DNA of 42,311 nt from a virus (taxonomy: Duplodnaviria > Caudoviricetes), in the IMG/VR virus record IMGVR_UViG_3300037420_000294, positions 1 through 42,311 of that record. One strand, written 5' to 3'. Each line of letters starts with the position of its first letter. Within the stretch, counting starts at the first letter, position 1. The notes below the pieces were generated by a model. It made no database searches. It was given only the letters and a program-made list of their open reading frames with translations, and was not told the origin of the DNA. The translations under genes were made by a program, and so were the position numbers. Shown here piece by piece: positions 18,542 to 39,091 of this stretch.

Positions 18542-19617
18542 CGAACGCGTCAGAGTTCAGGGAGGGTGTGATGCAGGCGTTGAAGGTCATCGATTTGCCG
18601 GAGGGCCGGCCCCCTCTCGCGCTCGACTTGCCGGGCGACACGACGTTCGACGAATGGGTCGCAATCGGTCGCCGGCTGTGTCTCGGAAGCCAGGCCCTGC
18701 AGTGGCACATCGGAGACTGGTGGGCATTCGGAGATCATCGCTATGGCGATCGTGCGAAAGCCGCGGCGGAGGGATTGTTCGGACGCGAGTTCGGCAGCCT
18801 GATGAACCTCGCCACGGTCGCGCGGACGTTCGAAACCTCACGGCGCCGTGAGCATCTAACGTTCACCCATCACGTGGAAGTCGCGAGCCTTCCGGCCGAG
18901 ACCGCCGAGGAATTGCTCGAGAAGGCCGAGCGGGAGCATCTCTCGACCCGCGATCTTCGCCGCGAAGTGCAGGCGATCAGGGTGGCGAACGATCCTCAAC
19001 CGGGCCCGGTGGAAGTCGAGCCCGAACCGCGAGCGTCAAAGCCCATCCCATCTCAGACGACACGCGCCGAGCTCACGGTCGCCTACGAGATGGTCATCGA
19101 GTTCGCGGAAGCGCTGCAGCAACTTCGGCCGCTCACCCGGCGTGAGACCGATCTCCTGGCAACGGCCATGACGTTCGTCGACGAGGCGCATTCCGGTCAT
19201 CGTCCGTGCCCCGAGGATTTCGAGGTGATCTTCGTCGAGCAAGGGCGGCTTGCCTGCGAAACGTGGTACGGAGCTTCACGGCTGACGGTAAATCGCTGGC
19301 TGATCGAACGCGGCAAGTCGCGCCTCATCGCCAAGCGCGCCGAATTCGTCAGGTTCCAGCGCGAGCAGCTTCATCCGCAGTCCGCCGTTCGTGAGACGGT
19401 CGCTGTGCGCCCGATCGACGTGCACCTGCACGCGTTGGCGAAGGAAGCCGCGTCGTTCCTGCGCGTCAGCCGGTATGGTGGATGGATGATTACCGAGACC
19501 GGCGATGGTGACTGGCGCGTGGGCACTGTCCGCAAGACCGCCGACGAGCTGATCGCCATGGCTGAGCGTCAGGGCTTCGACAGCGAGGCGGCACGAAAAG
19601 AGGTCGACGCGGAGTGA
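18538..19617 (+). CDS. LmbU-like DNA-binding protein with extra C-terminal domains
   Basis: F.EW...G..L.......W.IGDW..FG and VAR.F...RRR..L.F.HH.EVASL resemble the LmbU family. Confidence 0.7.
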   Translation: MTNASEFREGVMQALKVIDLPEGRPPLALDLPGDTTFDEWVAIGRRLCLGSQALQWHIGDWWAFGDHRYGDRAKAAAEGLFGREFGSLMNLATVARTFETSRRREHLTFTHHVEVASLPAETAEELLEKAEREHLSTRDLRREVQAIRVANDPQPGPVEVEPEPRASKPIPSQTTRAELTVAYEMVIEFAEALQQLRPLTRRETDLLATAMTFVDEAHSGHRPCPEDFEVIFVEQGRLACETWYGASRLTVNRWLIERGKSRLIAKRAEFVRFQREQLHPQSAVRETVAVRPIDVHLHALAKEAASFLRVSRYGGWMITETGDGDWRVGTVRKTADELIAMAERQGFDSEAARKEVDAE

Positions 19618-19649
19618 CCTACATCAGCGATAGGGTGGCGAGGTAGAAG
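19615..19649 (+). promoter_or_regulatory. Late promoter element 1 (variant)
   Basis: TGACCTACA-N20-TAGAAG; terS ATG 7 nt downstream. Confidence 0.6.
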
Positions 19650-19656
19650 GCTGACC

Positions 19657-20109
19657 ATGTCCGGTCCCCTCAAGAATGCGCGTCAGGAGCGATTTTGCCA
19701 GGAGCTGGCGAAGGGCAAGTCGCAGCTCGATGCCTACGAGTCCGCCGGTTACAAGCCGGATCGCGGGGCCGCCACACGGCTGTCAGCAAATGTCAGTGTT
19801 GCGGCTCGCGTCGCCGAGCTCAAGTCGCGCATCGCCGAAAAGGTGACTGAAAAGACATCAATCGACGCCGCGTGGGTGCTCACGAAAGCTGCTGAGCTTC
19901 ACGCTAGAGCACTGAAAGAAAAGCAACTTTCTGTCGCCAAGGGAGCGTTAGACCTGATCGGCAAGCACGTCGACGTCCAAGCATTCCGCGAGCAGGTCCA
20001 GCATTCCGGCCTGATCGAATACAAGAACCTCTCCGACGAAGAGATCGCCGCGCGGATCGCCGCGCACGAGGCCGCCCGTGCAAACGGCGACAAGCGCACC
20101 ACTCACTGA
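19657..20109 (+). CDS. terS: Terminase small subunit
   Basis: RQERFCQE...AY..AGY...A.RL pattern; directly precedes terL. Confidence 0.88.
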   Translation: MSGPLKNARQERFCQELAKGKSQLDAYESAGYKPDRGAATRLSANVSVAARVAELKSRIAEKVTEKTSIDAAWVLTKAAELHARALKEKQLSVAKGALDLIGKHVDVQAFREQVQHSGLIEYKNLSDEEIAARIAAHEAARANGDKRTTH

Positions 20110-21595
20110 CGTCGAATATCTCGCTCTGCTAGACGAGCGCGCCCGTCGCGAGCGGTTGCGCCGCGATGCCGCGGAACGGCAGCAGCTCGAGAATAACCTC
20201 GAGCAGATCCGACAGCGCTGCTCGACGCTCGCAGGCTTCGTCCGCGAGGCATGGCACGTGTTGGAGCCGGAAGCGAAGTACGTCCCCAACTGGCATATCG
20301 ACGCGATTTGCGAGCACCTCGAGGCGGTCACCGACGGACGCATCAACCGGCTGCTGATCAATGTCCCGCCTGGTTCGTCGAAGTCGCTGATCACATCCGT
20401 GATGTGGCCGGCGTGGGAATGGGGCCCATGTGGGCGCCGCTCGCTGCGTTATCTCGCAACTGCGTTCAACGAAGGTCCGGTCAAGCGCGACACGCGCAAG
20501 AGCCGCGATTTGATCGCCAGCGAATGGTTCCGGCGACTGTGGCCCGATGTTCAGCTGACGCGCACCGCCGAGACCAGCTTCGCGAATTCGTCGACCGGGA
20601 CGCGCGAGGGGGTACCGTTCGGATCGCTGACATCGCAGCGCGGCGACAGGCTGATCATCGATGACCCACATTCGACCGAGACAGCCGAGTCGGACACGGA
20701 GCGCCTGAACACGACGCGCAAGTTCCGCGAGGGTGCTGTCAATCGCCTCAACGACCAGGAGAAGAGCGCGATCGTCGTCATCATGCAGCGCCTGCACGAG
20801 CAGGACATCAGCGGCGTGATCCTCTCGCTCGGCATGGATTACGTGCACCTGATGTTGCCGATGGAGTTCGATCCGGCGCGCGCTTGCGAGACGCCGATCG
20901 GCTTCAAGGATCCGCGCACCGATGAAGGTCAGCTGCTCGACCCGAAGCGTTTTCCGCGTGAGGTGGTCGACGCGCTCAAGCGCGACATGGGCAGCTATGC
21001 GTTCAGCGGCCAGTACGACCAGGCGCCGACGCCGCGCTCAGGAGGTATGTTCCAACGCGGCGACTTCGAGATCGTCGATGCGGTGCCAGCCGGCGGACGC
21101 AGGGTGCGAGCATGGGATTTCGCGGCATCACAGCAGAAACCGGGCAAGCAGCCGGACTGGACCGTCGGACTTCGCATGGTGCTGGTGAAAGACGTGTTCT
21201 ACATCGAAGACGTGATGCGCGGCCGGTGGAGCGCGTCGGATGTCGAGACGCGGCTCAAGAACACGGCGACGCAGGATGGCCAGGGAATCACCATCCGCAT
21301 GCCGCAGGACCCGGGCGCCGCTGGCAAGGCAGACGCCGAGACGAAGGTCAAGCTGCTGAAAGGCTATCCCGTCATCGTGAAGCCCGTCACTGGCGACAAG
21401 GCGACGCGTGCCCGGCCGGCATCGGCACAGGCAGAGGCCGGTAACGTCAAGCTGTTGCGCGGGCCATGGAACGATGTCTTCCTGGGCGAGATTTGCGCAT
21501 TTCCGAACGGCGCATTCGATGACCAGGTCGACGCTTTCGCCGACGCGCTGAACGAGCTCGCGCTCGGAAACACCTACAGCTGGGACAACGTCTAG
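20078..21595 (+). CDS. terL: Terminase large subunit
   Basis: NVPPGSSKS, IIDDP, MQRLH, RAWD.A and DDQVDA motifs. Confidence 0.95.
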   Translation: MQTATSAPLTDVEYLALLDERARRERLRRDAAERQQLENNLEQIRQRCSTLAGFVREAWHVLEPEAKYVPNWHIDAICEHLEAVTDGRINRLLINVPPGSSKSLITSVMWPAWEWGPCGRRSLRYLATAFNEGPVKRDTRKSRDLIASEWFRRLWPDVQLTRTAETSFANSSTGTREGVPFGSLTSQRGDRLIIDDPHSTETAESDTERLNTTRKFREGAVNRLNDQEKSAIVVIMQRLHEQDISGVILSLGMDYVHLMLPMEFDPARACETPIGFKDPRTDEGQLLDPKRFPREVVDALKRDMGSYAFSGQYDQAPTPRSGGMFQRGDFEIVDAVPAGGRRVRAWDFAASQQKPGKQPDWTVGLRMVLVKDVFYIEDVMRGRWSASDVETRLKNTATQDGQGITIRMPQDPGAAGKADAETKVKLLKGYPVIVKPVTGDKATRARPASAQAEAGNVKLLRGPWNDVFLGEICAFPNGAFDDQVDAFADALNELALGNTYSWDNV

Positions 21596-21596
21596 C

Positions 21597-21630
21597 GAAC
21601 CTACATCGGCGCCGATGCTCGCCGTAACGT
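21597..21630 (+). promoter_or_regulatory. Late promoter element 2
   Basis: GAACCTACA-N19-TAACGT; ATG 7 nt downstream. Confidence 0.8.
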
Positions 21631-21637
21631 CGCCGCC

Positions 21638-23650
21638 ATGTCAGGCCGCCTCGTCAACGTCCGCCCGAAGCCGGGCTTCCTGATGGACGGCGCCGGCGAG
21701 ATCATCCCGGCACGTCAGAACGTGGTCCCGTTCCGCGACCGTTTGACCAACGTCATGTCCGGCATGGGCACGACCGCCGATCGCCGGGTGTACGATCGCT
21801 ATGCGTTCATCCCGATCAGCGCGGCGGAAAGCGAAGCCGGATATCGCGACGACTGGCTGTGGCGCAAGATCATCGACGTTCCAGCGCTCGACATGACCCG
21901 CGCGTGGCGCGACTGGCAAACGGAGAGCGCGAACATCGAAGCGCTCGAGGCCGAAGAGAAGCGGCTGCAGCTCAAGCACAAATGCAAGCGCGCGCTGATC
22001 CTGTCGCGCCTGTACGGCGGCGCGGCGCTGCTGCTGGGCACGAACGATCCCGATCCGTCGCAGCCGCTCAATCCGTCGCGCATCGGTAAGGGCGGCCTCA
22101 CTTACGTTCATGTGCTGTCGCGGCATCAGCTGACGCTCGGCAACCAGCGGCTAGACCCGGCTGATCCGTGGTTCGGCAAGCCCGATTATTTCGAGATCAA
22201 CACGAGCTCGAAGGATCAGCAGGTGAAGTTGCATCCCTCGCGCATCGTCGAGTTCATCGGACAACCGGTGCCGGAAGGGTCATGGTACGGCAGCGCCGGA
22301 ATGACGGGCGGGTCTTGGTTCTGGGGCGATCCGCTTGCACAGTCGATCCAGTCGGCGGTGAAGAACGCCAGTCTTGCGCAGGATGGCTTCGCGGCGCTCA
22401 TCGATCGGGCCGCGGTCGACGTGTTCAAGTTCAAGGATCTGATGAGCGTCGTCGGGACCGAGGATGGCGAAAGGCAGATCACGGCCCGCGTTGCGTGGAC
22501 CTCGCGCGCCAAGTCGACCCATCGCGCCATGCTGCTCGATGCCCAGGACGAATGGGAACAGGCCCAGATGGTCTGGGCCGGAATTCCGAACGTCATCGAT
22601 GCGTACACGCTGCTCGTCGCAGGCGCCGCGGATATTCCGATGACGCGCCTGCTCGGTCAGTCGCCGCGCGGCCTGCAATCGACGGGAGACGGCGAGGAGC
22701 GCGACTATCAGTCGATGATCAAGGCGCGGCAGGACGAGCTTCTGGCACCGGCGCTTGATCGCATCGACGAGCTGCTGATCCCGTCCGCGCTCGGCAGCCG
22801 TCCGAGCGATGTCTATTACGAGTTCGGCCCGCTGCAGGAGGAAAACGAGAAGGACGGCGCGACCATCGAGTTCCAGCTCAGCCAGGCGGTCAAGAATTAT
22901 TCCGATACCGGCCTCATCCCGGACATGGCGCTGGCCGCCATCGTCAAGAACCGGTTCATCGAGAGCGGACGCTGGCCCGGATCCGAAGTTGCGTTTGAGG
23001 AAGCGGAAGCCGCGACTGCTGCCGATCCCTCGCTCGATCCCGCGAATGACGATCCGAATGACGATCCTTCGGCGCTGACGCAGCCGCCGGTAGAACGCCA
23101 GCGCGGCGTCTCGGCTCTCAAGAAGAGCGGCGCGATCACGGCGGACCAGGCGAAGGCGCTTCTCGCCGATGCAGCTCCGCGCTCGCTCTACGTCAGTCGT
23201 AAGCTCCTGAACGCCGCTGACGTGATCGCATGGGCCAAGGGGCAGGGTTTCGAAACGACGGTCGCAGCCGACGAGATGCACGTCACGGTGCTCTATTCGC
23301 GCACGCCGGTCGATTGGATGGCGATGGGCAATGCGTGGGACGAAGATCAGAACGGCCAATTACGCGTCGCGCCGGGAGGCCCGCGAATGCTCGATCGCTT
23401 CGGCAGCATGGCCGATGCCGTCGTGCTGCTGTTCAATTCGTCGTCGCTGAGCTGGCGCCACGAGGACATGATAAGCAAGGGCGCGAGCAGCGATTACGCC
23501 GACTACGCGCCGCACGTCACGCTGAGCTATTCGGTCCCGGCTGACTTTGATCTGTCGAACGTCGAACCGTACCAAGGCGCGCTCGTGTTCGGTCCGGAGG
23601 TGTTCACCGAGGTCGTGGACGATTGGAAGTCCGGCATCACCGAGGAGTGA
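21638..23650 (+). CDS. Portal protein (DUF1073 type) fused to an Acb1-like 2H phosphoesterase
   Basis: Portal motifs RLYGG and AGAADIP.TRLLG.SP; acidic linker; two HxT motifs (MHVTVLYS, PHVTLSY). Confidence 0.88.
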   Translation: MSGRLVNVRPKPGFLMDGAGEIIPARQNVVPFRDRLTNVMSGMGTTADRRVYDRYAFIPISAAESEAGYRDDWLWRKIIDVPALDMTRAWRDWQTESANIEALEAEEKRLQLKHKCKRALILSRLYGGAALLLGTNDPDPSQPLNPSRIGKGGLTYVHVLSRHQLTLGNQRLDPADPWFGKPDYFEINTSSKDQQVKLHPSRIVEFIGQPVPEGSWYGSAGMTGGSWFWGDPLAQSIQSAVKNASLAQDGFAALIDRAAVDVFKFKDLMSVVGTEDGERQITARVAWTSRAKSTHRAMLLDAQDEWEQAQMVWAGIPNVIDAYTLLVAGAADIPMTRLLGQSPRGLQSTGDGEERDYQSMIKARQDELLAPALDRIDELLIPSALGSRPSDVYYEFGPLQEENEKDGATIEFQLSQAVKNYSDTGLIPDMALAAIVKNRFIESGRWPGSEVAFEEAEAATAADPSLDPANDDPNDDPSALTQPPVERQRGVSALKKSGAITADQAKALLADAAPRSLYVSRKLLNAADVIAWAKGQGFETTVAADEMHVTVLYSRTPVDWMAMGNAWDEDQNGQLRVAPGGPRMLDRFGSMADAVVLLFNSSSLSWRHEDMISKGASSDYADYAPHVTLSYSVPADFDLSNVEPYQGALVFGPEVFTEVVDDWKSGITEE

Positions 23651-23654
23651 GGCG

Positions 23655-24455
23655 GTGAAGTTCAGTCTCGCCGCCATGGCCAAGCGCCCGTCGCGCAAGC
23701 CGGTCGCGCTCGCCAACATCGCTCCGACAAAAGCGCAGGCCGACGACCTCTTCACGCTCTACGCCAGGATGCTCGCGATCTGGACAGCGCGAATTCCGAA
23801 CGTCGTCGCCGAATATGAGCGCACGCTGGCGAAGATGACGACCGACAGCGCGGAAACGACGGCCGGCGAACTCGATGGCATTGCTGCCGAAATCCAGCGG
23901 CTGGTGATCTTGCTGACGCCGGATTTGCGGCAATGGGCCCTTAGGCTCGAGTCGGTCCAACGCGGCAAATGGGTGCGGTCCGTGCTCTCCGCGATCGATG
24001 TCGACCTCAACACGGTTTTGACGGCCGGCGATGTGGAGGACACGGTTGGCGCGGCGATCAACTGGAACGTCAGCCTGATCCGTGACGTGAGCGCGCAGCT
24101 GCAGCAGAAGATCGCGAACGCCATCTTCGCCGGCTTCCAGCGGCGCGCGCCTGCGGAAGAGATCGCTAGCGAGATCAGGGACGCGGTTGGCATGGCTCGC
24201 TCGCGGGCGTTGCGGATTGCCGGTGATCAGACCGTGAAGCTCGGCGCGCGGCTCAATCAGGCTCGGCAGGAGCAGGCCGGCATAACCGAGTTCATCTGGC
24301 GGCATTCGGCGAAGAGGCACCCGCGCGAATGGCACCTCGCTCGCAACGGTCGCAAATTCCCTTGGCGCGGCAATTCGATCCCGGCCGACGACATGCCGGG
24401 AGTGCCGCCTTTTTGTGGATGCACCGCCCAGGGCGTGGTAAGTTTCGAGGAATGA
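23655..24455 (+). CDS. Head morphogenesis protein (Mu gpF / SPP1 gp7-like)
   Basis: RA..IA.DQ..K, W.HS....R.WH and PG....CGC motifs. Confidence 0.85.
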   Translation: MKFSLAAMAKRPSRKPVALANIAPTKAQADDLFTLYARMLAIWTARIPNVVAEYERTLAKMTTDSAETTAGELDGIAAEIQRLVILLTPDLRQWALRLESVQRGKWVRSVLSAIDVDLNTVLTAGDVEDTVGAAINWNVSLIRDVSAQLQQKIANAIFAGFQRRAPAEEIASEIRDAVGMARSRALRIAGDQTVKLGARLNQARQEQAGITEFIWRHSAKRHPREWHLARNGRKFPWRGNSIPADDMPGVPPFCGCTAQGVVSFEE

Positions 24456-24658
24456 TTGAGCCCTCCGACCTATCCGCCTTTTCTCTGCATCCCGATTCGG
24501 ATGGTCCGGTCCTTAGAGCTTCGGTCGATGACGCCATCCGGAGAGAAGCCGTTCGGCTCATGGAGAATGTGCGGGCGAAGTCGAACGAGGCCATGCTGCG
24601 CGTTCAACTTCGTGAGGATAGGCGGATCGTCGACGCAAACCGTCTCCGCCGCTCGTAG
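24452..24658 (+). CDS. Hypothetical 68-aa protein; its stop lies inside the tRNA-Arg 5' end
   Basis: ATGA overlap with the upstream gene; no recognisable motif. Confidence 0.4.
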   Translation: MIEPSDLSAFSLHPDSDGPVLRASVDDAIRREAVRLMENVRAKSNEAMLRVQLREDRRIVDANRLRRS

Positions 24659-24725
24659 CGCAACTGGATAGCGCACTTGGCTTCGAACCAAGAGGCTGCA
24701 GGTTCGAGTCCTGCCGAGCGGGCCA
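24649..24725 (+). tRNA. tRNA-Arg(TCG)
   Basis: Acceptor CCGCTCG/CGAGCGG; D-arm GCGC/GCGC with A20; anticodon arm CTTGG-CTTCGAA-CCAAG; T-arm GCAGG-TTCGAGT-CCTGC; ends G-CCA. Confidence 0.92.
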
Positions 24726-24727
24726 AC

Positions 24728-24801
24728 TGCCCCGTCGTCTAGCGGTAGGACATCGGCCTTTGAAGCCGACAGCCTTGGTTCGAATTCAAGCGGGGCATCC
24801 A
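24728..24801 (+). tRNA. tRNA-Gln(TTG)
   Basis: Acceptor TGCCCCG/CGGGGCA; anticodon arm TCGGC-CTTTGAA-GCCGA; T-arm CTTGG-TTCGAAT-TCAAG; ends T-CCA. Confidence 0.85.
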
Positions 24802-24803
24802 AC

Positions 24804-24837
24804 GAACCTACAGCCTGACGAGCCGCGCCCGTAATTT
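24804..24837 (+). promoter_or_regulatory. Late promoter element 3
   Basis: GAACCTACA-N19-TAATTT; ATG 7 nt downstream. Confidence 0.8.
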
Positions 24838-24844
24838 CGGGCGC

Positions 24845-24958
24845 ATGGACGTCCTCGAAACGATACTCATCGTCGTTGGCGTAATCGTCGGCGGTGCGAT
24901 CGTGCTGGCCATCATCGGCGCGGTACTCGCCGTCACCAGCGATGCGTGGAGCCACTGA
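24845..24958 (+). CDS. 37-aa single-pass membrane microprotein
   Basis: MDVLETILIVVGVIVGGAIVLAIIGAVLAVTSDAWSH; leaderless position; TGATG coupling to the next gene. Confidence 0.7.
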   Translation: MDVLETILIVVGVIVGGAIVLAIIGAVLAVTSDAWSH

Positions 24959-26169
24959 TGCTCTTCGCCGACAAGCTCAGCTTCGACCATCCGCGGAAGA
25001 CGCAAGACGGTTACATGGTCGTCAGGGCTCGAGCAGCTCGCGCCGGCATCTACGATTACCTCGGTCGCGAGGTCGATCCGGAGGGCAAGACCTTCGCCGC
25101 CGACCAGGTGGTCAAAGTCTATCGCCCCGAAGAGGAGGTGTTCGCTCAGGATAGCGTCGCCAGCTTCCTGATGAAGCCGGTCACGAACGATCATCCCGCG
25201 CAGCCTGTCACGGCGGCCAACTGGCGCGACCATGCGAAAGGAGTTGTCGGCAAGGCCATGCGCGATGGCGACTTCCTCGCGTTCGACATCGTGCTGATGG
25301 ACAAGGGCATCATCTCCGACGTCGAGAGCGGTAAGCGCGAGCTTTCGAACGGCTATGCGTCCGTGCTCGATTTCACCGCCGGTCAGACCGAGGATGGCCA
25401 GCAGTACGACGCTCGCCAGTCGCAGATTCGCGGAAATCACGTCGCCGTCGTCGACAAGGGCCGAGCGGGTCCGCTGTGCAGGATCGGCGATGCCGCCACG
25501 TGCGCCACGCTGCCGGCCGCCGAGCTCATCGAAATTTTGACCGACGAACGAACCTACAGCGACGGTTCGGACGGCCATAAAAACAACGCTGCAAGTTCAG
25601 GAGGCGGCCAAGTGGCGACCAAGACGATCACTTTCGACGGACTTCCGCTCGAAGTCACCGACGCGGCCGAGGCGGCAATCGCCAAGCTGCAGGGTCAGAT
25701 CACCACGCTCACCACGGCGAAGGACGCGGCGGAGACCAAGGTTGGCGAGCTCACCGCCACCGTCTCGACCAAGGATGGCGAGATCGCCGCGCTCGAGCAG
25801 AAGGTGAAGGACGCAGCGGTCAGTCCGGCCCAGCTCGAGAAGCTCGTTGCCGACCGCTCCGCCCTCATCGCGCAGGCGAAGGGCATCGAGCCCAACGTCG
25901 CCACGGACGGCAAGACCGAAGCCGAAATCCGCAAGGCCGTCGTGTCGGCCAGGCTCGGCGACAGCGCCAAGGACATGGACGACGCCGCGATCGCCGGCGC
26001 GTTCACCGTGCTCGCCAAGGACGTGAAGGTCGATCCGGTGCGCAACGTGCTGTCGGGCGGGATCACTCCGGTCGAAGACGCCAAGGCCGAGTACGCCAAG
26101 GCCCGTGACGAAGCGCGCAAGAACCTTTCCGACGCATGGCGCCCGGCCGCGCCTGCGAACGCCGCCTGA
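24958..26169 (+). CDS. DUF2213 capsid maturation / scaffold protein
   Basis: AR.GIY.Y, VYRP.EEVF, PVT.DHP, ELS.GY and NHVA.V..GRAG motifs; coiled-coil C-terminal half. Confidence 0.88.
   Translation: MLFADKLSFDHPRKTQDGYMVVRARAARAGIYDYLGREVDPEGKTFAADQVVKVYRPEEEVFAQDSVASFLMKPVTNDHPAQPVTAANWRDHAKGVVGKAMRDGDFLAFDIVLMDKGIISDVESGKRELSNGYASVLDFTAGQTEDGQQYDARQSQIRGNHVAVVDKGRAGPLCRIGDAATCATLPAAELIEILTDERTYSDGSDGHKNNAASSGGGQVATKTITFDGLPLEVTDAAEAAIAKLQGQITTLTTAKDAAETKVGELTATVSTKDGEIAALEQKVKDAAVSPAQLEKLVADRSALIAQAKGIEPNVATDGKTEAEIRKAVVSARLGDSAKDMDDAAIAGAFTVLAKDVKVDPVRNVLSGGITPVEDAKAEYAKARDEARKNLSDAWRPAAPANAA
25550..25583 (+). promoter_or_regulatory. Late promoter element 4 (intragenic)
   Basis: GAACCTACA-N19-TAAAAA, then AGGAGG and an in-frame GTG at 25612. 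Confidence 0.7.
25612..26169 (+). CDS. Probable separately translated scaffold (internal in-frame start)
   Basis: AGGAGG-N7-GTG at the domain boundary, with its own promoter element. Confidence 0.6.
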   Translation: MATKTITFDGLPLEVTDAAEAAIAKLQGQITTLTTAKDAAETKVGELTATVSTKDGEIAALEQKVKDAAVSPAQLEKLVADRSALIAQAKGIEPNVATDGKTEAEIRKAVVSARLGDSAKDMDDAAIAGAFTVLAKDVKVDPVRNVLSGGITPVEDAKAEYAKARDEARKNLSDAWRPAAPANAA

Positions 26170-26183
26170 GGGAGTCGAGCGAA

Positions 26184-26642
26184 ATGGCAATTACCGTTCA
26201 GAGCACTTACCCGACGGCACCCGCTGCTGGCTTCGCCGGCATGGTCGCGAACGGCGAGAAGTCCAACCGGATCAGCCGATCGGTCGAGGACGCTGGCGGC
26301 ATGGCGTTCGGCGTTGCTGCATTCCGCGGCAGCGGCGATCATGGCTGCACCGCAACTCCGACGGCCAACAAGTTCCTCGGCATCGTCATCGCCGATGTCG
26401 GCCAGGTTCCCGGCCTCGGCGGCACTGCCGACACTCTCGCGCAGTATACGACCGCAAGCCTTCTCAATGAAGGCGTGATCTACGTGAACGCTTCGGTCGC
26501 GGTGAACCAGGGCGACGCCGCCTATGTCACCGCTGGCGGCGCGATCACCAACGTCTCGACTTCGAACACCGCCATCCCGGCGCGGTTCGATGGCACCATT
26601 GCAAGCGCGGGCATTGTGCCGCTGCGCGTGACTCGCTCGTAA
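26184..26642 (+). CDS. Capsid cement / decoration protein
   Basis: Gly/Ala/Thr-rich 152 aa between scaffold and major capsid genes; GGGAG RBS. Confidence 0.75.
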   Translation: MAITVQSTYPTAPAAGFAGMVANGEKSNRISRSVEDAGGMAFGVAAFRGSGDHGCTATPTANKFLGIVIADVGQVPGLGGTADTLAQYTTASLLNEGVIYVNASVAVNQGDAAYVTAGGAITNVSTSNTAIPARFDGTIASAGIVPLRVTRS

Positions 26643-26654
26643 GGGGACTGAAAG

Positions 26655-27590
26655 ATGCCGCGCGACGGACAGATCATCTTCGAGGACGCACAGCAGGCTG
26701 GCGGTTTCCTGGTCCCCCAACTGTACCGCATCCACGGAGCGGTGCTGCAGGCGAAGTACCCGTCTTTCGATTATGCCGGCCTCGTGCCCGTCAACACCGA
26801 CGGCACGATGTGGGACATCGGAACGCTCGTCTATTCTGGCGATCTCGCGGGCGCCGCTGCCTATATCGGCGGCAAGGCTTTCGACATCCCGAACGCGAGC
26901 ATCAACTTCGCGCTGGGCCAGAGCCAGTTCCACCTCGCTGGCGCCGGCTACGAGCTGTCGCTGCAGGAAGTGAACCGCGCCGCGCAGATGAATATTCCGC
27001 TCGATCAGCGCAAGGCTTCTGCCGCGCGCCTGGTCAGCCAGAAGTTCGTCTATGATCGCGTCATTCGCGGCTCGACCGAGAAGAACACGACCGGCCTCAT
27101 CAACAACGCGTCGGTGCCGGCTGCAAGCGCTCCGACGGGCGGCTGGGGAACTGCGACGCCCGCGCAGATCCTCGCGGACGTCAACACCGCGCTCAACGAC
27201 GTCATCACGAACAGCGGCGAGACGGCGATGCCGAACGCCCTGATCCTGCCGACGACCGCGTTCCTGACGGCGAACAACACTCAGGTCACCAACACGAACA
27301 TGTCGGTGCTGACGTTCCTCAAGCAGAACAACAGCTACACGGCGATGACCGGCCAGGAGCTCGACATCCGCGCCAGCCGTGAGCTTCAGGCGGCGGGTTC
27401 CGGTTCGTCGCGGCGCATGGTGGCTTACGAGAAGAGCCCCGACAACATGGAGTTCTTCCTGCCGGGCATGTTCGAGTTCCTGCCGCCGTTCGCCATCTCT
27501 TCGATGGCGTGGAAGGTCGACGGCATCATGAACGTCGGCCAGCTCGAAATCTATCGCCCGAAGACGGTCTCGTACCGCGACGGGATCTAG
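26655..27590 (+). CDS. Major capsid protein (DUF2184 type)
   Basis: 311 aa with E...A.....LD..K, GLIN and P.T.SY.DGI patterns; position in the head module. Confidence 0.88.
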   Translation: MPRDGQIIFEDAQQAGGFLVPQLYRIHGAVLQAKYPSFDYAGLVPVNTDGTMWDIGTLVYSGDLAGAAAYIGGKAFDIPNASINFALGQSQFHLAGAGYELSLQEVNRAAQMNIPLDQRKASAARLVSQKFVYDRVIRGSTEKNTTGLINNASVPAASAPTGGWGTATPAQILADVNTALNDVITNSGETAMPNALILPTTAFLTANNTQVTNTNMSVLTFLKQNNSYTAMTGQELDIRASRELQAAGSGSSRRMVAYEKSPDNMEFFLPGMFEFLPPFAISSMAWKVDGIMNVGQLEIYRPKTVSYRDGI

Positions 27591-27599
27591 GAGGCGTAC

Positions 27600-27788
27600 A
27601 TGACGAAGGTCACCAACACCGCAGAGGGCCCGCGTGGCGTAGAGACCGACAACGGCACCGTGTTCATCGAACCGGGCCAGACGGTCGACGTCGACATCAA
27701 GGAAGGCCACGAGCTCTACGAAGGGCTCGAGAAGGGAGCGGCCGCGGCGAAGAAGGCTGCTGCCGAGGAAGCCGAAGAGGCGAAATAG
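27600..27788 (+). CDS. Small head-associated protein
   Basis: GGAGG RBS; 62 aa after the major capsid gene. Confidence 0.7.
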   Translation: MTKVTNTAEGPRGVETDNGTVFIEPGQTVDVDIKEGHELYEGLEKGAAAAKKAAAEEAEEAK

Positions 27789-27815
27789 CCAGCTCTCTCC
27801 CCTGAGAGAATGCGG

Positions 27816-27850
27816 CGGGCCGTCCTTAACCGGGCGGCCCGTTTCGCGTT
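27816..27850 (+). terminator. Probable intrinsic terminator after the head genes
   Basis: Stem CGGGCCGTCC/GGGCGGCCCG followed by TTTCGCGTT. Confidence 0.55.
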
Positions 27851-27884
27851 GAACCTACAGCGCAGCGCGGCCGCGACGTAACTT
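27851..27884 (+). promoter_or_regulatory. Late promoter element 5
   Basis: GAACCTACA-N19-TAACTT; ATG 6 nt downstream. Confidence 0.8.
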
Positions 27885-27890
27885 TCGGCC

Positions 27891-28649
27891 ATGATCACGT
27901 GGCCCACGAAAGACCCGGATGCGGTCCTCGATTACACGGCGCACATTCCGCTCGACAGCGGCGACAGCATTGCCAGCGGACAGGCCACGATCACGCGCAT
28001 TGACGGCACCGTGGTGCTGGTCAGCCAGACGCTCGCCGCCGCTCCGAGTACGACAGACGGCGCTTACGGGCAGGACCTGACCGCCTGGCTATCGGGCGGC
28101 GCCGATGGAGAGACATCCGTCTTCCGTATCGCATGGACAACCGCCCTCGGCCGCCAGGACGACGCGATCGTCCTGCTGCCGGTTGCGGCGAACGAGCCGG
28201 CCCCACTCGCACTCACCGGCTATGCAAAGCCGAGCGCCGCGGACCTGGTCGCGCGCTATCCCGCTTTCACCGACGTCGATGTGGCGACGATCCGCGCATG
28301 GCTGACCGATGCCGAGCGCTACGTCACCACGGCTTGGGGTGAAGGCGACTATGCGGCCGGCTTGATGAGCCTCGCGGCGCACAATCTGACCATGGCAGGC
28401 CTCGGCACCGATGCAGCGTCGCTGGCAAGCATCCCGGTTGGCGTCACTCGCATGAAATCCGGTTCGCTCGAGGTCGGCTTTACCGATGCCGCCGCGAATG
28501 CCCGGCTCACCGGAGGCTACGGCGCGACGCGCTACGGTGCCGAATATCTCTCGCTTCTGCAGCGCAATCGTGGCGGTCCGCGGGTGGCATCGACCGGCGT
28601 TCCGGTGGACTGCATCGTTCCGCTTGAAGGATGGCCGCAATGGGGCTGA
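27891..28649 (+). CDS. Head-tail connector (DUF4054-like) with an extra N-terminal adaptor-like domain
   Basis: N-terminal KDPD..LDY...WLSGG; C-terminal ARYPAF...AAH.L...T.YG..Y. Confidence 0.72.
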   Translation: MITWPTKDPDAVLDYTAHIPLDSGDSIASGQATITRIDGTVVLVSQTLAAAPSTTDGAYGQDLTAWLSGGADGETSVFRIAWTTALGRQDDAIVLLPVAANEPAPLALTGYAKPSAADLVARYPAFTDVDVATIRAWLTDAERYVTTAWGEGDYAAGLMSLAAHNLTMAGLGTDAASLASIPVGVTRMKSGSLEVGFTDAAANARLTGGYGATRYGAEYLSLLQRNRGGPRVASTGVPVDCIVPLEGWPQWG

Positions 28650-28996
28650 TGGACGGCTCAATCGCTGCTGCGTTTGCTGGCGTGTTTGAGGCCATTTATC
28701 TCGACGGCACGCTCTTCCGGCCGGTCGCGTTCGCCGATGACGGCATGGGCGGCGGTTCGGATCAGAGCTTCGGACCCGGTGAGGCGGTCAAGGTGCAGAT
28801 CGATGCCGCCACCTTCGCCATGCGCGCGAGCGAGGGCTTTATCGAAGGCGACGTGCGGATCCTGATGCTCGCGCATGGCGTCTCCGCTCCGGACACAGAT
28901 TGCGAGATCGGCGCGGGCGGTGCTCGCTACATGGTGGAGAGTGTCGCGACGGATCCGTGCGGCAGCTATTACGAGCTGCGCGGCCGGAAGAAGTAG
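28640..28996 (+). CDS. Head closure / adaptor protein
   Basis: Size and position; ends in DP....YELRGR. Confidence 0.65.
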   Translation: MGLMDGSIAAAFAGVFEAIYLDGTLFRPVAFADDGMGGGSDQSFGPGEAVKVQIDAATFAMRASEGFIEGDVRILMLAHGVSAPDTDCEIGAGGARYMVESVATDPCGSYYELRGRKK

Positions 28997-28997
28997 C

Positions 28998-29411
28998 GTG
29001 CCCCGCATAACCGGCGACAAGGGCGTCACCATCCGCCTCAACAACATCAGCGAGCAAGCCGTGCGCCGCGTCGGTGCGGCACTGTTCGCGGGCGGCGAGG
29101 AGATCAGGGCGGAAGCCAGCCACATGATCACTGAGGGCGCGGTAAGCGGCAAGCACCACGTTCCGAGCGCCCCGGGCGATCCTCCGAACGAAGACACTGG
29201 CGTCCTTCGCACGAACATCGAGACGACGCAGATCGGCCCGCTCAAGGTCGAAGTCAGCAGCAACGCGCCATATGCGGCGGCGCTCGAATTCGGCACGTCG
29301 AAGATGCTTCCCCGCCCGTACATGCAGCCCGCGACCGATCGGAAGCGCGATGCCGTCGTGGCGCTGGTGCGTGGGGCTGTCAGCGCCGCCGTCAAAGCCT
29401 CGAAGGGCTGA
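28998..29411 (+). CDS. HK97 gp10-like tail completion protein
   Basis: SAPGDPP..DTG.L and YA..LEFGT.KM.PRPY..P motifs. Confidence 0.85.
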   Translation: MPRITGDKGVTIRLNNISEQAVRRVGAALFAGGEEIRAEASHMITEGAVSGKHHVPSAPGDPPNEDTGVLRTNIETTQIGPLKVEVSSNAPYAAALEFGTSKMLPRPYMQPATDRKRDAVVALVRGAVSAAVKASKG

Positions 29412-29412
29412 T

Positions 29413-29446
29413 GAACCTACAGGCGGCCCAAGCGCCGCCATATCAT
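29413..29446 (+). promoter_or_regulatory. Late promoter element 6
   Basis: GAACCTACA-N19-TATCAT; leadered, with AGGGGA RBS. Confidence 0.8.
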
Positions 29447-29474
29447 CGCCGCGCATCATCCAAGGGGACAACCC

Positions 29475-30741: not shown

Positions 30742-30742
30742 T

Positions 30743-30776
30743 GAACCTACAGCCCTATCGGAGCGGCGCGTAAAGT
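30743..30776 (+). promoter_or_regulatory. Late promoter element 7
   Basis: GAACCTACA-N19-TAAAGT; leadered, with GGAGG RBS. Confidence 0.8.
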
Positions 30777-30830
30777 CGCCGCGGTAAGGCCCCTCGCGCA
30801 GGCGGCTGGTGCTTTGATGGAGGCTCTTCG

Positions 30831-31936: not shown

Positions 31937-32130
31937 CGCTTGCCAACTGCGCGAGGATGAACATTCCTCCATCGGAAGCCGGCGCGCTCGACCTCTGGAC
32001 ATATGAAGCGTTGGTGTTTGCCTGGAACGAAGCGCTCACTCGTGACACCGACGATGTCGACGCGCCTGATCCGGAAATCGCGATGCGCGTGCTCGACAAG
32101 GCCAACCGGGACGAGCGCCTGATCCACTAG
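31861..32130 (+). CDS. -1 frameshift extension of the chaperone (gpGT-like)
   Basis: Slippery A AAA AAA G at 31861; the -1 frame is open to 32130. Confidence 0.7.
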   Translation, partial: KKRRAPKDGGDFGKEGQEGFFDYPLALANCARMNIPPSEAGALDLWTYEALVFAWNEALTRDTDDVDAPDPEIAMRVLDKANRDERLIH

Positions 32131-32139
32131 CGTCCCCGC

Positions 32140-32173
32140 GAACCTACAGGCGCAATTTGCCGCGCCATAGAGT
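32140..32173 (+). promoter_or_regulatory. Late promoter element 8
   Basis: GAACCTACA-N19-TAGAGT; ATG 6 nt downstream. Confidence 0.8.
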
Positions 32174-32179
32174 GCGGCC

Positions 32180-34636: not shown

Positions 34637-35221
34637 ATGATCGACCTTCCCGACCATGGCTATAGCGAGCGCAAGATCAGCCCCGTCGACCCGGGCGGCA
34701 CGGCAGACGGCGCACTCGGCGGACCGTCCGACTACATCGACCGGCCCGGCTATCGCTACTCGGTCACCTACACGCTGAGGCCGCTTCGATCGCAGGATGA
34801 CGCTCGCATCTTCGAGACGCTGCTCGAGCAAGCCGCCCGCGATGATGTCAGCTACCCGTTCCCGCTCGACCAGCGGTCGCTTCCCGCCGGGACGCCGCTG
34901 GTGAATGGCTCGAATGCGCCCGGCGCGGTCATCAATCTCAAGGGCCTTCAGCCGGGTTTCCAGTTTCGCATCGGACAGCCGTTCGCGGTGATCCTCGCCG
35001 ACGGGACGGGCTTCATCCATAAGGCGACGGTCGCGACGTCGGTCGGCGACGACGGGCTGGCGAGCGTCCCGGTGTTCCCGCTGACCCGGACCACGTTCGC
35101 GGACGGCCTGACAGTCGAGATCGAGCGCCCCCGCATCCGCGGCATCCTTCAGTGGGACGGATCGACGCAGGGCGCCAACGGGGCGCGCCCGTTCAGCTTC
35201 ACGATCACTGAGAGGCGCTGA
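34637..35221 (+). CDS. Distal tail protein
   Basis: Follows the tape measure gene; 194 aa. Confidence 0.65.
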   Translation: MIDLPDHGYSERKISPVDPGGTADGALGGPSDYIDRPGYRYSVTYTLRPLRSQDDARIFETLLEQAARDDVSYPFPLDQRSLPAGTPLVNGSNAPGAVINLKGLQPGFQFRIGQPFAVILADGTGFIHKATVATSVGDDGLASVPVFPLTRTTFADGLTVEIERPRIRGILQWDGSTQGANGARPFSFTITERR

Positions 35222-35225
35222 TCAG

Positions 35226-35876
35226 ATGACGCCGCAGATGATCGCTGCGCTGTCGGCCGGCCGGGCGCTGCTGACCGCGTTCTTCGAGATCGATCTTCCG
35301 AGCGGCACACGGCGCTTGCTGTACGGCAGCACTGAGGTCGCATGGAGCGGAAACACCTGGCTCGGCTACGACCAGACGATCGGCTCGCTCGCGGCGCCCG
35401 ACGACGTCACTGAGGACATGACCGGGGAAGCGCCGAATACGAGCATCACGCTCATCGTCTCGCCCGACGCCAACCTGGACGACATCGCCGGTGATGCGAT
35501 CCAGCTTTCGCCGCTCAAAATCTGGCTCGTCGCGCTCGAGCTCGACATCAACAAACGACTGCAGGTGGTGCCTGATCCGGAGCTTCTGTTTGACGGCTTC
35601 GTCGACCAGGCGACGATCACGCTCGATTCGAAGCGCAACGAGCTCGATTACACGATCATCTCGGCGTTCGATTACTTCTTCGAGGATAGCGAGGGGCAGC
35701 GGCTCAACGGTCAATTCCATCAGTCGATCTGGCCGGGCGAGAAGGGTCTCGACAACGTCACCGGCGTCACGAAGAAAATCTACTGGGGCGCCTACGGACC
35801 GGCGAGCGCGGGAACGCTGTTCGGCGGCGGCGGCGGACGCGCCGGCCCGGTGCAGGTCTGGATCAGGAACCTGTGA
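35226..35876 (+). CDS. Tail tip / hub protein
   Basis: LF.G..D and HQ...PG..G...V......YWG patterns. Confidence 0.7.
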   Translation: MTPQMIAALSAGRALLTAFFEIDLPSGTRRLLYGSTEVAWSGNTWLGYDQTIGSLAAPDDVTEDMTGEAPNTSITLIVSPDANLDDIAGDAIQLSPLKIWLVALELDINKRLQVVPDPELLFDGFVDQATITLDSKRNELDYTIISAFDYFFEDSEGQRLNGQFHQSIWPGEKGLDNVTGVTKKIYWGAYGPASAGTLFGGGGGRAGPVQVWIRNL

Positions 35877-36304
35877 TGGATCTCGTCAAGCGCATGCTCG
35901 CGACGCAGAAGACCGTCGACACATTCAAAGGCAGGGCATTCAGGGACGGCCGCAGCGATTGCGTCCAGCTGATCCTCGCTCACTCGCGCCACATGGGCCG
36001 TCCGATCAAGGTGCCGAAATATCGCGACGTAAAAGGCGCGGCCGGTGTGCTGAAAAAGCTCGGCTTCAAGACGCTTGCGGAGGCGATGGACCATCATTTC
36101 ACGCGCATCGATGTGAGCCGCGTGCTGGCCGGCGATATCGTCGAGATGCCGGGCGCCAACGGCTTCTCTGGGCTGACCGTCTCCGTCGGCAACGGGCGCG
36201 TTCTCGGCTTTCACGAAGACATCGAGCATTGCGAAATTCTGCAGCCGCTCCTGATCAGCGGCGTGTGGCGGATCGAAGCGAAGGCTAAGCGTCGCGGCCG
36301 CTGA
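35873..36304 (+). CDS. NlpC/P60-like tail protein
   Basis: F..G.SDC and GDIV motifs; position in the tail tip module. Confidence 0.65.
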   Translation: MMDLVKRMLATQKTVDTFKGRAFRDGRSDCVQLILAHSRHMGRPIKVPKYRDVKGAAGVLKKLGFKTLAEAMDHHFTRIDVSRVLAGDIVEMPGANGFSGLTVSVGNGRVLGFHEDIEHCEILQPLLISGVWRIEAKAKRRGR

Positions 36305-36626
36305 CGCACGCTTCAATATTGTTGCGGACGCGCGCCCCATAGGCGAGGCCCTCGCGAACTTCGACGGTTGATCCGGCTTTTGTCGGACGGAGCGTCACCA
36401 GCACCGCGGTAGTTCCGCCGCCGCCGAACGACAGCTCCGTCGAGCCATCGCCGGGGATGATCGAAGGGGCCGCGATCCAACTGAGATTCCCAGCGAGGCA
36501 ATGCTGAAGCTCGGCCACTGGCCGGCTGCTGTAATACGTCGCTCTAGGCGTGTGGTCGCGCATCTCGCGGATGGTGGTGCTGCAGCCGACCGTAAGCAGC
36601 AGCGCCAGGATCAAGATCCGTTTCAT
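36285..36626 (-). CDS. Lipoprotein moron
   Basis: Signal peptide and lipobox MKRILILALLLTVG-C; antisense to the tail genes. Confidence 0.8.
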   Translation of the reverse strand: MKRILILALLLTVGCSTTIREMRDHTPRATYYSSRPVAELQHCLAGNLSWIAAPSIIPGDGSTELSFGGGGTTAVLVTLRPTKAGSTVEVREGLAYGARVRNNIEACVSGRDA

Positions 36627-36633
36627 CGCCGCC

Positions 36634-36662
36634 GATTTAAACTTTTCGGGGAGATGGCTCAA
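36634..36662 (-). promoter_or_regulatory. Sigma70-like promoter of the lipoprotein gene
   Basis: TTGAGC-N17-TAAATC; ATG 7 nt downstream. Confidence 0.55.
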
Positions 36663-36670
36663 CCAGGTGC

Positions 36671-36704
36671 GAACCTACAGCCGCCGGGGACCGCCCAATA
36701 ATCT
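36671..36704 (+). promoter_or_regulatory. Late promoter element 9
   Basis: GAACCTACA-N19-TAATCT; ATG 9 nt downstream. Confidence 0.8.
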
Positions 36705-36713
36705 GCCGCACGC

Positions 36714-39050
36714 ATGTCCAAGGTGGTGAAAATCGCGGCTATCGTCGTTGGCGTGGTGGCCATGGCGATCCCGGTCGTCGGTCAGATCGTCGGCACTGCC
36801 ACACTTGCGGCCGCGCTCGGCGTCAGCGTCGGAACGCTCGCCACCATCGCCACCATTGCATCGGTCACCGCAACCGTCCTCGGCGTCGTCGCAGGAGTCC
36901 TGACGAAACCTCCAAAGCTCAAGAGCGACATCGCCGGCCAGCAACTCGAATGGTCCGCCGATCCGTCCGCAGGCGAGCCATATGCGCTCGGCGACACGAT
37001 GATCGGCGCCTCGATCGTGCACCAGGCGAGCTGGGGGACGAAGAACAAGAACCTCGGCATCATCGGCGCGCTCAGCATCTGCACGATCTTCGCCTATGAC
37101 GGCCTCTATGCCGACATGACGCAGGTGAGCTTCAGTTCGACCACACACAACGCGATCGGCTACTTCCACGACCATCTCTACCTGAACACGCAACTCGGCG
37201 CGACGCCGGAGGCTGCGGCGCTCACCATGACCGCGCCGGATGCGACCGCGATGCCCGATTGGGGTGCGGCCTATAAGACGTCCGGCATCGCGACGGCGGG
37301 CATGATCCTTGTCGCCGATATCGACAATGGGAAGATTTATTCGGGAGGGACGCCGAAGCTCACCAATCGGGTTCGGGGCGTGCTCGCCTATGACCCACGC
37401 GCGGATTCGACGCAGCCGGGCGGCAGCGGGGCTCAGCGCGCACTCACCGAGAGCACTTATGCCTATTCGGACAATCCGTGGGTGCACGCCGCCACCTACG
37501 CACTCGGCCGCTGGCAGAGTGGCAAGAAGGTGATCGGGCCCGGCCTCGCGCCGGCTCAAATCGACTTCGCGTCCTACATGGAAGCGGCCAGCGTTGCCGA
37601 CGCGAACGGCTGGAAAATCTCCGGCCTCATTTATTCGAGCGACGGTAAGTGGGACGTGCTGAAAGCGATGGCACAGGCCGGTGGCGGCTTCCCGATGCCC
37701 GCCCAGGCTCGTCTGTCGTGTCTCGTCAATGCGCCCAAGGTCAGCATCGCGACGATCACCGAGGCTGACGTGAAAGGCGCCGTGACGGCGCCGCAAATGC
37801 TGATCCGCCGCGACCGGCTCAATGGAGCCATCCCGCGCATCCGCACCTCGGACCATGGCTGGGAAGTGACGCCGCTGGTGGCGGTCAGGAACGCGACATA
37901 TCTCGCGGCGGACGATGGCAACGAAAAGACCCGCGAGGTCGATCTTCCGCTGGTTTCCGACAACGGGAACGGCGCCGGAAAGAACCAGGCCGCGCAGCTC
38001 GCCGCCTACGCCGTAGCGAACAGTCGCGAGCGCACCGGCATCTCGGTCGAGCTCGGCTATCAGTGGTCGCAGTATAAGCCGGGCGATTGCCTAACGCTCG
38101 ACCTGCCGGGCGCGCGGCTGAGCAATCAGAAGTGCATCGTCATCGGCCGCACGATCAACGTCGCGAAGAATACGATCACGCTGCAGTTCCAGACCGAGGA
38201 CGATGCGAAGCATACGTGGGCGCTTGGCGTCACCGGCACTGCCAACACGCCGCCGACGATCGCGCAGGCACCAGGGACCGGCGACACGAATACCAATGTC
38301 CTCGGCATTGATGATCCGCCTCAGCGCCTCAGCTTCAAGTACGATTATACGGGAGCTCCGCAGACCAACGAGTTTTCGCGCGACCTGACCTTCAAGCTCT
38401 ACAACTCGGCCGGCCAGATCACTGACGGGATCACTTGGACCTATCAGGTGCTGACCGGAACGGTGAACGGCTTCACCAGCGCATCAGCGGCACAGTCGAT
38501 GGCAGGCATCGGAACCGGGACGCTGACCGTCTCTAGCCTCGGCACGAGCGAGGCAAAGGTGCAGGTCACGGCCTCGATCAACGGCAGCTCATATGTGAAA
38601 ACGGTCACGCTGTCGCAGGACATGTCCCTAGCGCCGGTCGGTGCGAGCGGTGCGCTCGCGTCGAAAACCAGCGGCTTCGCGAGCATCAACTCGACGACGT
38701 TCATTGACGATACCGGCGCGATCGCTGGCACCGTGCCGTCAGGGAAGACCGCGGCGACGGTTGCCGTCGCGCTCGATTTCACGCCGAACGTGGGGATCAG
38801 CGGGGCCTGGACTGTCGAGGTCAAGGTGATGCGCGACATCTCCGGCACACCGACTCAGATCGGCACGACGCAAAGCAACTCCTCGGATTGGGATGACGTC
38901 GACAAGACGCTGACGCCCGCGAGCTTCGCCTTCTCGATTGCGGACACGGGCCTGACGGCCGGCACGACCTACAACTGGCGCGTTTACGCTCGCCTCACCA
39001 GCGGCTCGCGCACGCACAGCGTCACTGGCACGGTGACCGTCACCGCCTGA
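36714..39050 (+). CDS. Tail tip / central fibre (gpJ-like) protein
   Basis: G...YDPR.D, YS.NP and ID..S...AA..D patterns; Thr-rich C-terminus. Confidence 0.8.
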   Translation: MSKVVKIAAIVVGVVAMAIPVVGQIVGTATLAAALGVSVGTLATIATIASVTATVLGVVAGVLTKPPKLKSDIAGQQLEWSADPSAGEPYALGDTMIGASIVHQASWGTKNKNLGIIGALSICTIFAYDGLYADMTQVSFSSTTHNAIGYFHDHLYLNTQLGATPEAAALTMTAPDATAMPDWGAAYKTSGIATAGMILVADIDNGKIYSGGTPKLTNRVRGVLAYDPRADSTQPGGSGAQRALTESTYAYSDNPWVHAATYALGRWQSGKKVIGPGLAPAQIDFASYMEAASVADANGWKISGLIYSSDGKWDVLKAMAQAGGGFPMPAQARLSCLVNAPKVSIATITEADVKGAVTAPQMLIRRDRLNGAIPRIRTSDHGWEVTPLVAVRNATYLAADDGNEKTREVDLPLVSDNGNGAGKNQAAQLAAYAVANSRERTGISVELGYQWSQYKPGDCLTLDLPGARLSNQKCIVIGRTINVAKNTITLQFQTEDDAKHTWALGVTGTANTPPTIAQAPGTGDTNTNVLGIDDPPQRLSFKYDYTGAPQTNEFSRDLTFKLYNSAGQITDGITWTYQVLTGTVNGFTSASAAQSMAGIGTGTLTVSSLGTSEAKVQVTASINGSSYVKTVTLSQDMSLAPVGASGALASKTSGFASINSTTFIDDTGAIAGTVPSGKTAATVAVALDFTPNVGISGAWTVEVKVMRDISGTPTQIGTTQSNSSDWDDVDKTLTPASFAFSIADTGLTAGTTYNWRVYARLTSGSRTHSVTGTVTVTA

Positions 39051-39057
39051 GGTGCTT

Positions 39058-39091
39058 GAACCTACAGCGCGAGAGGCGCGGGCCGTATCGT
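39058..39091 (+). promoter_or_regulatory. Late promoter element 10
   Basis: GAACCTACA-N19-TATCGT; ATG 6 nt downstream. Confidence 0.8.

Follow-up and report, generated by a model that had tools for sequence, protein, structure and literature searches.

The control of late genes is understood for few phages beyond those of enteric bacteria and Firmicutes. In lambda, the gene for Q holds the end of the early rightward operon; the zinc-finger protein Ogr of P2 acts at a dyad near -55, and Lpa of P1 at a -22 box. In phage Mu, the promoters for late transcription (Plys, PI, PP, and Pmom) carry a -10 hexamer but no typical -35 element and are used by the host polymerase with the small helix-turn-helix (HTH) protein C, which overlaps the -35 region and binds as an oligomer to a 16-bp imperfect dyad centered at -43.5 (PMC2582627; bioRxiv 10.1101/2025.05.02.651988). 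The middle promoters of T4 pair a MotA box with AsiA-remodeled sigma-70 (PMC7403470), and the gene transfer agent (GTA) of Caulobacter is controlled by GafY, IHF, and GafZ at a non-consensus -35 promoter (PMC11150451). Here, we analyze a 42.3-kb virus record with 64% GC (IMGVR_UViG_3300037420_000294, Duplodnaviria, Caudoviricetes; its 42,311 nucleotides are referred to as the window), in which a nine-base box, GAACCTACA, recurs across the late region. The boxes probably belong to promoters of host sigma-70 in which a phage HTH activator, encoded directly before terS, recognizes the -35 slot.

The locus resembles Mu in that a temperate phage has several, here putative, late promoters and a candidate HTH protein for the -35 slot. 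It differs from Mu in its box, which is asymmetric, spans 9 to 12 bp, and lies at about -40 to -32, in contrast to a 16-bp dyad at -43.5, and in having about ten putative promoters, most of them predicted to be leaderless, against four. T4 MotA likewise has an asymmetric phage box in place of the -35 element at many dispersed promoters, a likeness that is positional only here; T4 is lytic, and its middle class needs two proteins. The Caulobacter GTA shares alphaproteobacterial particle genes, a non-consensus -35 element, and a dedicated activator, but it has one main promoter, an activator site near -120, and antitermination, whereas here many putative promoters have a box in the -35 slot. Several internal late promoters depending on one small phage protein are also known for P2 Ogr, P4 Delta, and P1 Lpa, although neither the geometry nor the protein family of Ogr or Lpa matches. 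The box is further upstream than the -30 of MotA, and ten sites here stand against the single late promoter plus Q of the lambdoid phages.

For homology searches, 77 of the 303 listed open reading frames (ORFs) were picked as probable genes and scanned with Pfam and PHROGs. These scans found no Mor/C match, either in the 77 ORFs or in family members of the candidate, no MotA or AsiA homologue, and no sigma factor among the 77; Q was found neither there nor with 22 further NCBIfam queries, and an unrecognized antiterminator is possible. An earlier note on this DNA, made by a model from the sequence alone, had recognized neither Q nor a sigma factor. It had also compared the locus with Mu C and MotA, a comparison that stands for the logic but not for homology, with no homologue detected and no dyad. 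The control logic is known, the parts are unnamed in family libraries, and we regard the result as moderately surprising; what is new is the candidate reader and its covariation with the class of box. The literature searched, which had few subscription papers, gave no description of late control in temperate sphingomonad phages, and there was no phage-promoter paper on either of the two boxes treated below among the matches listed by a full-text search.

Nine exact boxes lie at a fixed distance from a -10-like hexamer

The earlier note had described ten copies of a box-N19-TANNNT element. Our search of the window returned nine exact copies of GAACCTACA at the positions it gave (Table 1), all on the plus strand; they span the region between 21597 and 39058, with none elsewhere in the window, the early region included. 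With up to one mismatch allowed, there were 13 matches against 2.2 expected, a number reached in 0 of 100 shuffles. TA follows exactly 19 nt past the box in all nine exact copies, which, at the late-region TA frequency of 0.0137, has a chance of ~1e-17. The hexamers listed in the note for these copies were reproduced; its full pattern held only in part, as the final T is present in eight of the nine and the tenth copy, a variant at 19615, has a 20-nt spacer. Nor is the spacer unconserved, as had been stated: G occupies +1 in 8/9 and C +2 in 7/9, and a purine precedes TA in 9/9. By a matrix trained on relatives, the nine exact sites score 22 to 36 bits, and the next independent site in the window scores 10.8. 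The conserved columns, YGAACCTACAGC, are asymmetric, and upstream of them conservation stops; the box has no dyad symmetry. By position, the box fits its proposed placement where a -35 element would be, and a TTG -35 at spacers of 16 to 18 was found in 0 of 49 sites in relatives, the best match being 3 of 6.

A further regularity, absent from the earlier account, concerns the start codons. At six of the nine exact copies, the ATG of the next gene lies 6 to 9 nt past the hexamer (binomial p 2.6e-5), and these six sites lack a Shine-Dalgarno (SD) sequence; at the remaining three, an SD precedes the start codon, which lies 28 to 54 nt from the hexamer. Because RNA starts 6 to 8 nt downstream of a sigma-70 -10 box, transcription from the six sites would begin on or next to the AUG, and most late messages are likely to be leaderless. 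Leaderless mRNAs are common in Caulobacter, where 375 have been reported (PMC4117421).

The variant site (TGACCTACA-N20-TAGAAG-N7-ATG, the ATG being that of terS) has two mismatches and does not score above 6 bits by the relatives-trained matrix. In relatives, an exact or one-mismatch box precedes terS at this place, its spacer being 20 nt in most cases, and it is these matching sites, rather than the score, that support 19615 as a putative tenth site. Searches for other signals gave little. The spacers showed no hairpin signal, folding no better than shuffled sequences (mean z 0.03 over the 49 sites in relatives), Rfam returned nothing besides two tRNAs, a scan for consensus promoters and terminators was at chance level, and no public RNA runs covering window positions 19001-29000 were listed.

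Box class covaries with the type of HTH protein encoded before terS

Relatives were found by their capsid protein, and the loci for the box count were fetched by protein, not by motif. Capsid relatives at 77 to 99% identity carry GAACCTACA (box A), and others at 44 to 72% carry TGACGGCGGTAA (box B) in the same slot, which answers a check suggested in the earlier note, that of related phages. When pooled, the 52 distinct exact box-A sites (14 loci, window included) have TA at N19 in 47 cases and an ATG 5 to 10 nt past the hexamer slot in 33, with a peak at 6 to 8 nt; among 98 box-B sites, 63 have TA at N20 and 73 have the ATG. The two classes differ in the hexamer-final T (37/47 for box A vs 22/63 for box B), and its absence from most box-B hexamers is like that from most alphaproteobacterial sigma-70 promoters (PMC8407463).

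Across box-A phages, the gene before terS is conserved in its final 146 residues, and box-B phages encode a homologous but distinct protein at the same place (profile comparison 96%, E 1e-9). R237, C240, R248, and T250, as numbered in the 359-amino acid protein, distinguish the two types. An S. soli prophage (L144) provides one such type-B pair, with the protein encoded at 873-1172 and TGACGGCGGTAA sites. Sites of the ACCTA type were found in 25 of 27 type-A loci and the B box in none of them; conversely, the B box was found in 28 of 28 type-B loci and GAACCTAC-N20-TA in none, both locus sets including near-duplicates. A loose ACCTA pattern occurs 88 times on the gene strand vs 8 times on the other. 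On a tree of the HTH part (54 rows), the three box classes described here need two changes, the minimum, and the ACCTA group has a support of 98/78. On a capsid tree (35 rows), they need five to six changes, with 5/5 independent pairs concordant (p 0.0625). ACCTA boxes and the type-A HTH also occur together with an unrelated DUF4055 portal (L287, L293, and L294), and two chromosomal prophages found by the family profile, G094 and G187, have six and five GAACCTAC[C/A]-N19-TA sites, respectively, in gene orientation. The third HTH variant pairs with a third box, TCCGTAG, present four times (G233). The earlier note had named no activator; because box class covaries with HTH type, we propose this protein as the candidate.

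Scans of viral contigs gave a mixed result. A 14-base pattern was found at 123 loci, of which 110 had less than 55% GC and showed no ATG peak, so that most matches are chance; at the 13 loci above 55% GC, an ATG lies at 6 to 7 nt in eight. The longer loci of a separate metagenome scan had no HTH match. A scan with a GCCTAGTAT box gave 120 loci with a chance-like pattern and an HTH gene of the candidate's family in none.

At three prophage sites (G094:C1:317713-317745; G187:C7:136466-136499 and 144104-144136), the -10 hexamer is an inverted copy of the box, and the pattern reads on both strands. Members of the HTH family, named RPCP-HTH here after a motif in its sequence (Table 1), are also encoded by seven small chromosomal elements (L314, L315, L322, L323, L345, L350, and L354). 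Most of these have genes for a terminase-like ATPase and a tape measure, and the ORFs above 140 amino acids include neither a portal nor a capsid. In four of the elements (L314, L322, L323, and L345), the HTH gene itself is preceded by a B-type box, an arrangement that suggests either a gene activating its own expression or satellites driven by a helper.

The candidate reader belongs to an unnamed protein family

The HTH part is present at 44 to 48% identity in 5/5 box-A contigs, and it is the only regulator-like gene common to all five (28 window genes tested; three contigs near complete). RecE, RecT, and the primase-helicase are also common to the three near-complete contigs and are not regulators. 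Other window genes considered as readers, namely CI, a 64-amino acid cro-like ORF, an HTH at 9669, and DnaA-C-like and GapR-like genes, are not common to the near-complete box-A contigs.

The family comprises 570 representatives at 50% identity (E <= 0.001) and has no name in Pfam, PHROGs, or NCBIfam; the present reading would give it a testable function. GenBank phages yielded zero matches to the type-A protein and one to type B. AlphaFold models of the candidate have pLDDT values of 84 and 93, and the model of the HTH core (pLDDT 93) is a three-helix bundle with helices at residues 8-15, 17-24, and 28-38. Its fold matches are HTH-like (Z 4 to 5.5), the best being SANT/Myb, NarL, and DosR (Z 4.3 to 5.5, rmsd 2.5 to 4.2), weak scores for a common arrangement. 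Mor/C, MotA, and Ogr are not among the listed matches, which, all being weak (Z <= 5.5), do not exclude them. Foldseek returned nothing at E <= 0.001 against the PDB and BFVD, a profile search of PDB sequences gave nothing meaningful, and the ESM Atlas gave two unnamed clusters at 0.76. Prediction of a complex between the 140-amino acid candidate and region 4 of Sphingomonas soli RpoD scored 0.00, which counts neither for nor against.

In the window, the candidate is fused to an N-terminal part resembling the LmbU family (NCBIfam NF038070, E 3e-28, residues 28-163), at 98.9 bits and thus below the 125-bit cut-off. Because this part has no match in any of the five box-A contigs, it is not the box reader. 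Five family members of 343 to 359 amino acids (P0105, P0107, P0114, P0136, and P0166) have the HTH at the same offset as the window protein, whose LmbU-like domain lies at 18538-19176, and thus the fusion recurs. In others (P0019, P0081, P0104, P0126, and P0153; L305, L306, and L338), this small HTH is repeated three to six times in tandem, and some of these tandem proteins are encoded in the early region of box-B phages.

The box is rare in sphingomonad chromosomes

The host is inferred to be a sphingomonad, because an S. soli prophage is among the relatives and box-A prophage genes occur in G094, G187, and G369, which belong to the S. soli family. The earlier note had advised a check on host genomes for the case that the motif is a common host promoter. 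Among 401 genomes of the Sphingomonas soli family, 10 contain the full pattern (12 matches), against 29 (31 matches) for a reversed control, and two of the 12 chromosomal matches adjoin phage portal or protease genes. Judged from these genomes, the box is not a host promoter class.

Weighing the explanations

Taken separately, it is highly likely that the sites are promoters, and, given that they are, quite likely that the HTH protein is their positive reader. A number of observations count against the activator reading as a whole. The HTH tree rests on 63 columns. On a portal tree (46 rows, with loci lacking an HTH match or having fewer than 200 aligned residues left out), box A forms one clade with a single change, so that the split between A and B may go back to a single ancestral event, and the switches on the capsid tree may stem from exchanged capsid genes. 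Four of the HTH proteins found with box B (L130, L143, L176, and L184) have a predicted recognition helix unlike that of the usual type B, which argues against any simple helix code. One locus, L349, has a type-B HTH before terS and no B box in 40 kb; five further loci with family members (L346, L350, L354, L355, and L359) have no callable box, L129 (capsid 74% identical) has neither box in 7 kb, and L273 and L285 gave no ACCTA-type call with ~2 kb downstream covered in each. Fold comparison gave weak matches (Z <= 5.5, rmsd 2.5 to 4) that reveal no function, and the host is inferred rather than given. The single change on the portal tree, the divergent helices found with box B, and the boxless L349 would also fit late promoters read by a host activator or another phage protein, with the HTH gene merely traveling with the late module, and the gene is indeed physically linked to terS, often overlapping the first box. 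Yet no second regulator-like gene among the window genes tested occurs in all box-A contigs, the pairing outlasts a change of head module, the three box classes take the fewest possible changes on the HTH tree, and host chromosomes show no enrichment of the motif, so we consider another reader unlikely.

Covariation is silent on the sign of the effect, and polymerase can be blocked by a protein sitting on the -35 region; the HTH protein might bind the box as in an operator network and repress or delay late transcription, with something else activating it. This is quite improbable, as none of 49 sites has a TTG -35, so that the promoters seem incapable of firing without help, the gene ends the early operon as late activators such as lambda Q do, and the early and immunity region has no box. 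A hairpin in RNA or DNA, acting as a processing site for leaderless ends or as a hairpin promoter, deserves even less credence: the self-complementary spacers at 29413 (z -2.5) and 32140 (z -1.8) and the G094 and G187 hexamers that turn a site into an inverted repeat have to be set against a mean spacer z close to zero, the two tRNAs as sole Rfam result, a set of scanned ORFs without a phage RNA polymerase, and the T-A with final T at a fixed distance, which is the signature of a -10 element. The least credible alternative is an alternative host sigma promoter borrowed by the phage (ECF-, RpoH-, or RpoE-like). It would agree with the lack of a phage sigma factor among the ORFs scanned and with the GAAC in the box, which resembles the -35 elements of ECF promoters; but GAAC lies 24 nt from the hexamer instead of the 16 to 17 of ECF promoters, close relatives have a box of entirely different sequence at an equal distance, and the chromosomal matches fall below the reversed control, two of them beside phage genes. 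A hexamer at fixed distance with no TTG -35, sites that keep to the late strand, a geometry fit for leaderless starts, and a motif absent from host chromosomes together argue for the distributed, activator-dependent late regulon that the earlier note had suggested, which is still the best reading of the sequence.

A proposed mechanism for late transcription

According to the activator reading, the gene at 18538-19617 would be transcribed after induction as the last of the early rightward operon. The HTH domain would then bind the asymmetric box, and host sigma-70 would read a TANNNT -10 box that lacks a usable -35 element, the HTH protein letting polymerase start. RNA would begin 6 to 8 nt further on, which in 7 of the 10 sites is at the AUG or adjacent to it, and the other three would give SD-led messages for the scaffold, a 169-amino acid protein, and the major tail protein. 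In this way, ten promoters would drive the packaging, head, and tail modules, the internal ones restarting transcription after terminators and setting the amounts made per module. The arrangement suggests a virion program built largely on leaderless mRNAs, and the relatives supply natural activator-box pairs for a swap experiment.

A broader and rather doubtful proposal is that the RPCP-HTH proteins form a novel family of phage activators whose members work as single subunits, take the place of sigma region 4 in the -35 slot, and exist as protein-box pairs that exclude one another (GAACCTACA, TGACGGCGGTAA, and TCCGTAG). If it were true, helper phages could activate, or be activated by, the capsid-less sphingomonad elements in which the type-B gene follows its own box, and the change of box in the type-A lineage would be an escape from such parasites. 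The pairs would also offer existing orthogonal switches with which to express leaderless genes in alphaproteobacteria.

Sites and neighboring genes in the window

The window encodes an integrase, RecE/RecT, CI, a GapR-like gene, SNF2/methylase, and a primase-helicase, followed by terminase, head, and long-tail genes; no lysis gene was recognized in it, and its far end falls within a long ORF of the tail region. The sites are mostly at gene boundaries, as the earlier note had stated, with the exception of the one at 25550 (Table 1).

Table 1. Candidate activator gene and putative late promoter sites in the window (aa, amino acids).
Feature	Positions	Strand	Next start codon	Context
359-aa gene, LmbU-like N-part fused to candidate late activator	18538..19617	+		Last in early rightward operon, directly before terS
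Candidate activator: three-helix HTH (19198-19389, RPCPxDF...RW family) and small alpha/beta C-terminal domain	19177..19617	+		
Variant site, TGACCTACA-N20-TAGAAG	19615..19649	+	ATG 19657 (terS), 7 nt past hexamer	Overlaps stop codon of candidate activator
Site before portal gene	21597..21630	+	ATG 21638, 7 nt past hexamer	No SD
Site after two tRNA genes	24804..24837	+	ATG 24845 (37-aa hydrophobic ORF), 7 nt past hexamer	Prohead protease next
Internal site in prohead-protease gene	25550..25583	+	In-frame GTG 25612	In-frame R-T-Y; AGGAGG with the GTG
Site right after strong GC-rich hairpin 3' of capsid genes	27851..27884	+	ATG 27891 (adaptor-like gene), 6 nt past hexamer	
Site before 169-aa gene of unknown function	29413..29446	+	ATG 29475	Leadered, SD-like AAGGGG
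Site before major tail protein gene	30743..30776	+	ATG 30831	Leadered, GGAGG
Site before tape-measure gene	32140..32173	+	ATG 32180, 6 nt past hexamer	No SD
Site before 778-aa tail protein gene	36671..36704	+	ATG 36714, 9 nt past hexamer	No SD
Site before 160-aa distal tail-region gene	39058..39091	+	ATG 39098, 6 nt past hexamer	No SD

An internal site of the 25550 type is kept in 10/10 distinct type-A protease genes and is likely to be the promoter for a nested scaffold. At the counterpart of the 24804 site in relatives, the ATG starts the protease itself; in the window, the 37-amino acid ORF (24845-24958) stands between promoter and protease gene, and L126:793 has a different, longer insert at the ATG matching window position 24845. 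The leaderless start at this site looks like a slot for extra genes. Directly before it, within the head region, are the tRNA genes Arg(TCG) and Gln(TTG) at 24649-24801.

At its C-terminus, the portal protein (21638-23650) has an anti-CBASS domain, Acb1 (PF23474, E 1e-40, residues 516-665). Several relatives align with it over the full length and others over the first 450 residues only. The locus without a B box mentioned above (L349; G218:C4:222100-242099) is prophage-like and has terS, terL, adaptor, and tail genes but no capsid match, with a portal-like match ~14 kb further on. In the early operon of the window, a stand-alone gene for a DnaA C-terminal HTH adjoins the GapR-like gene (10209-11106).

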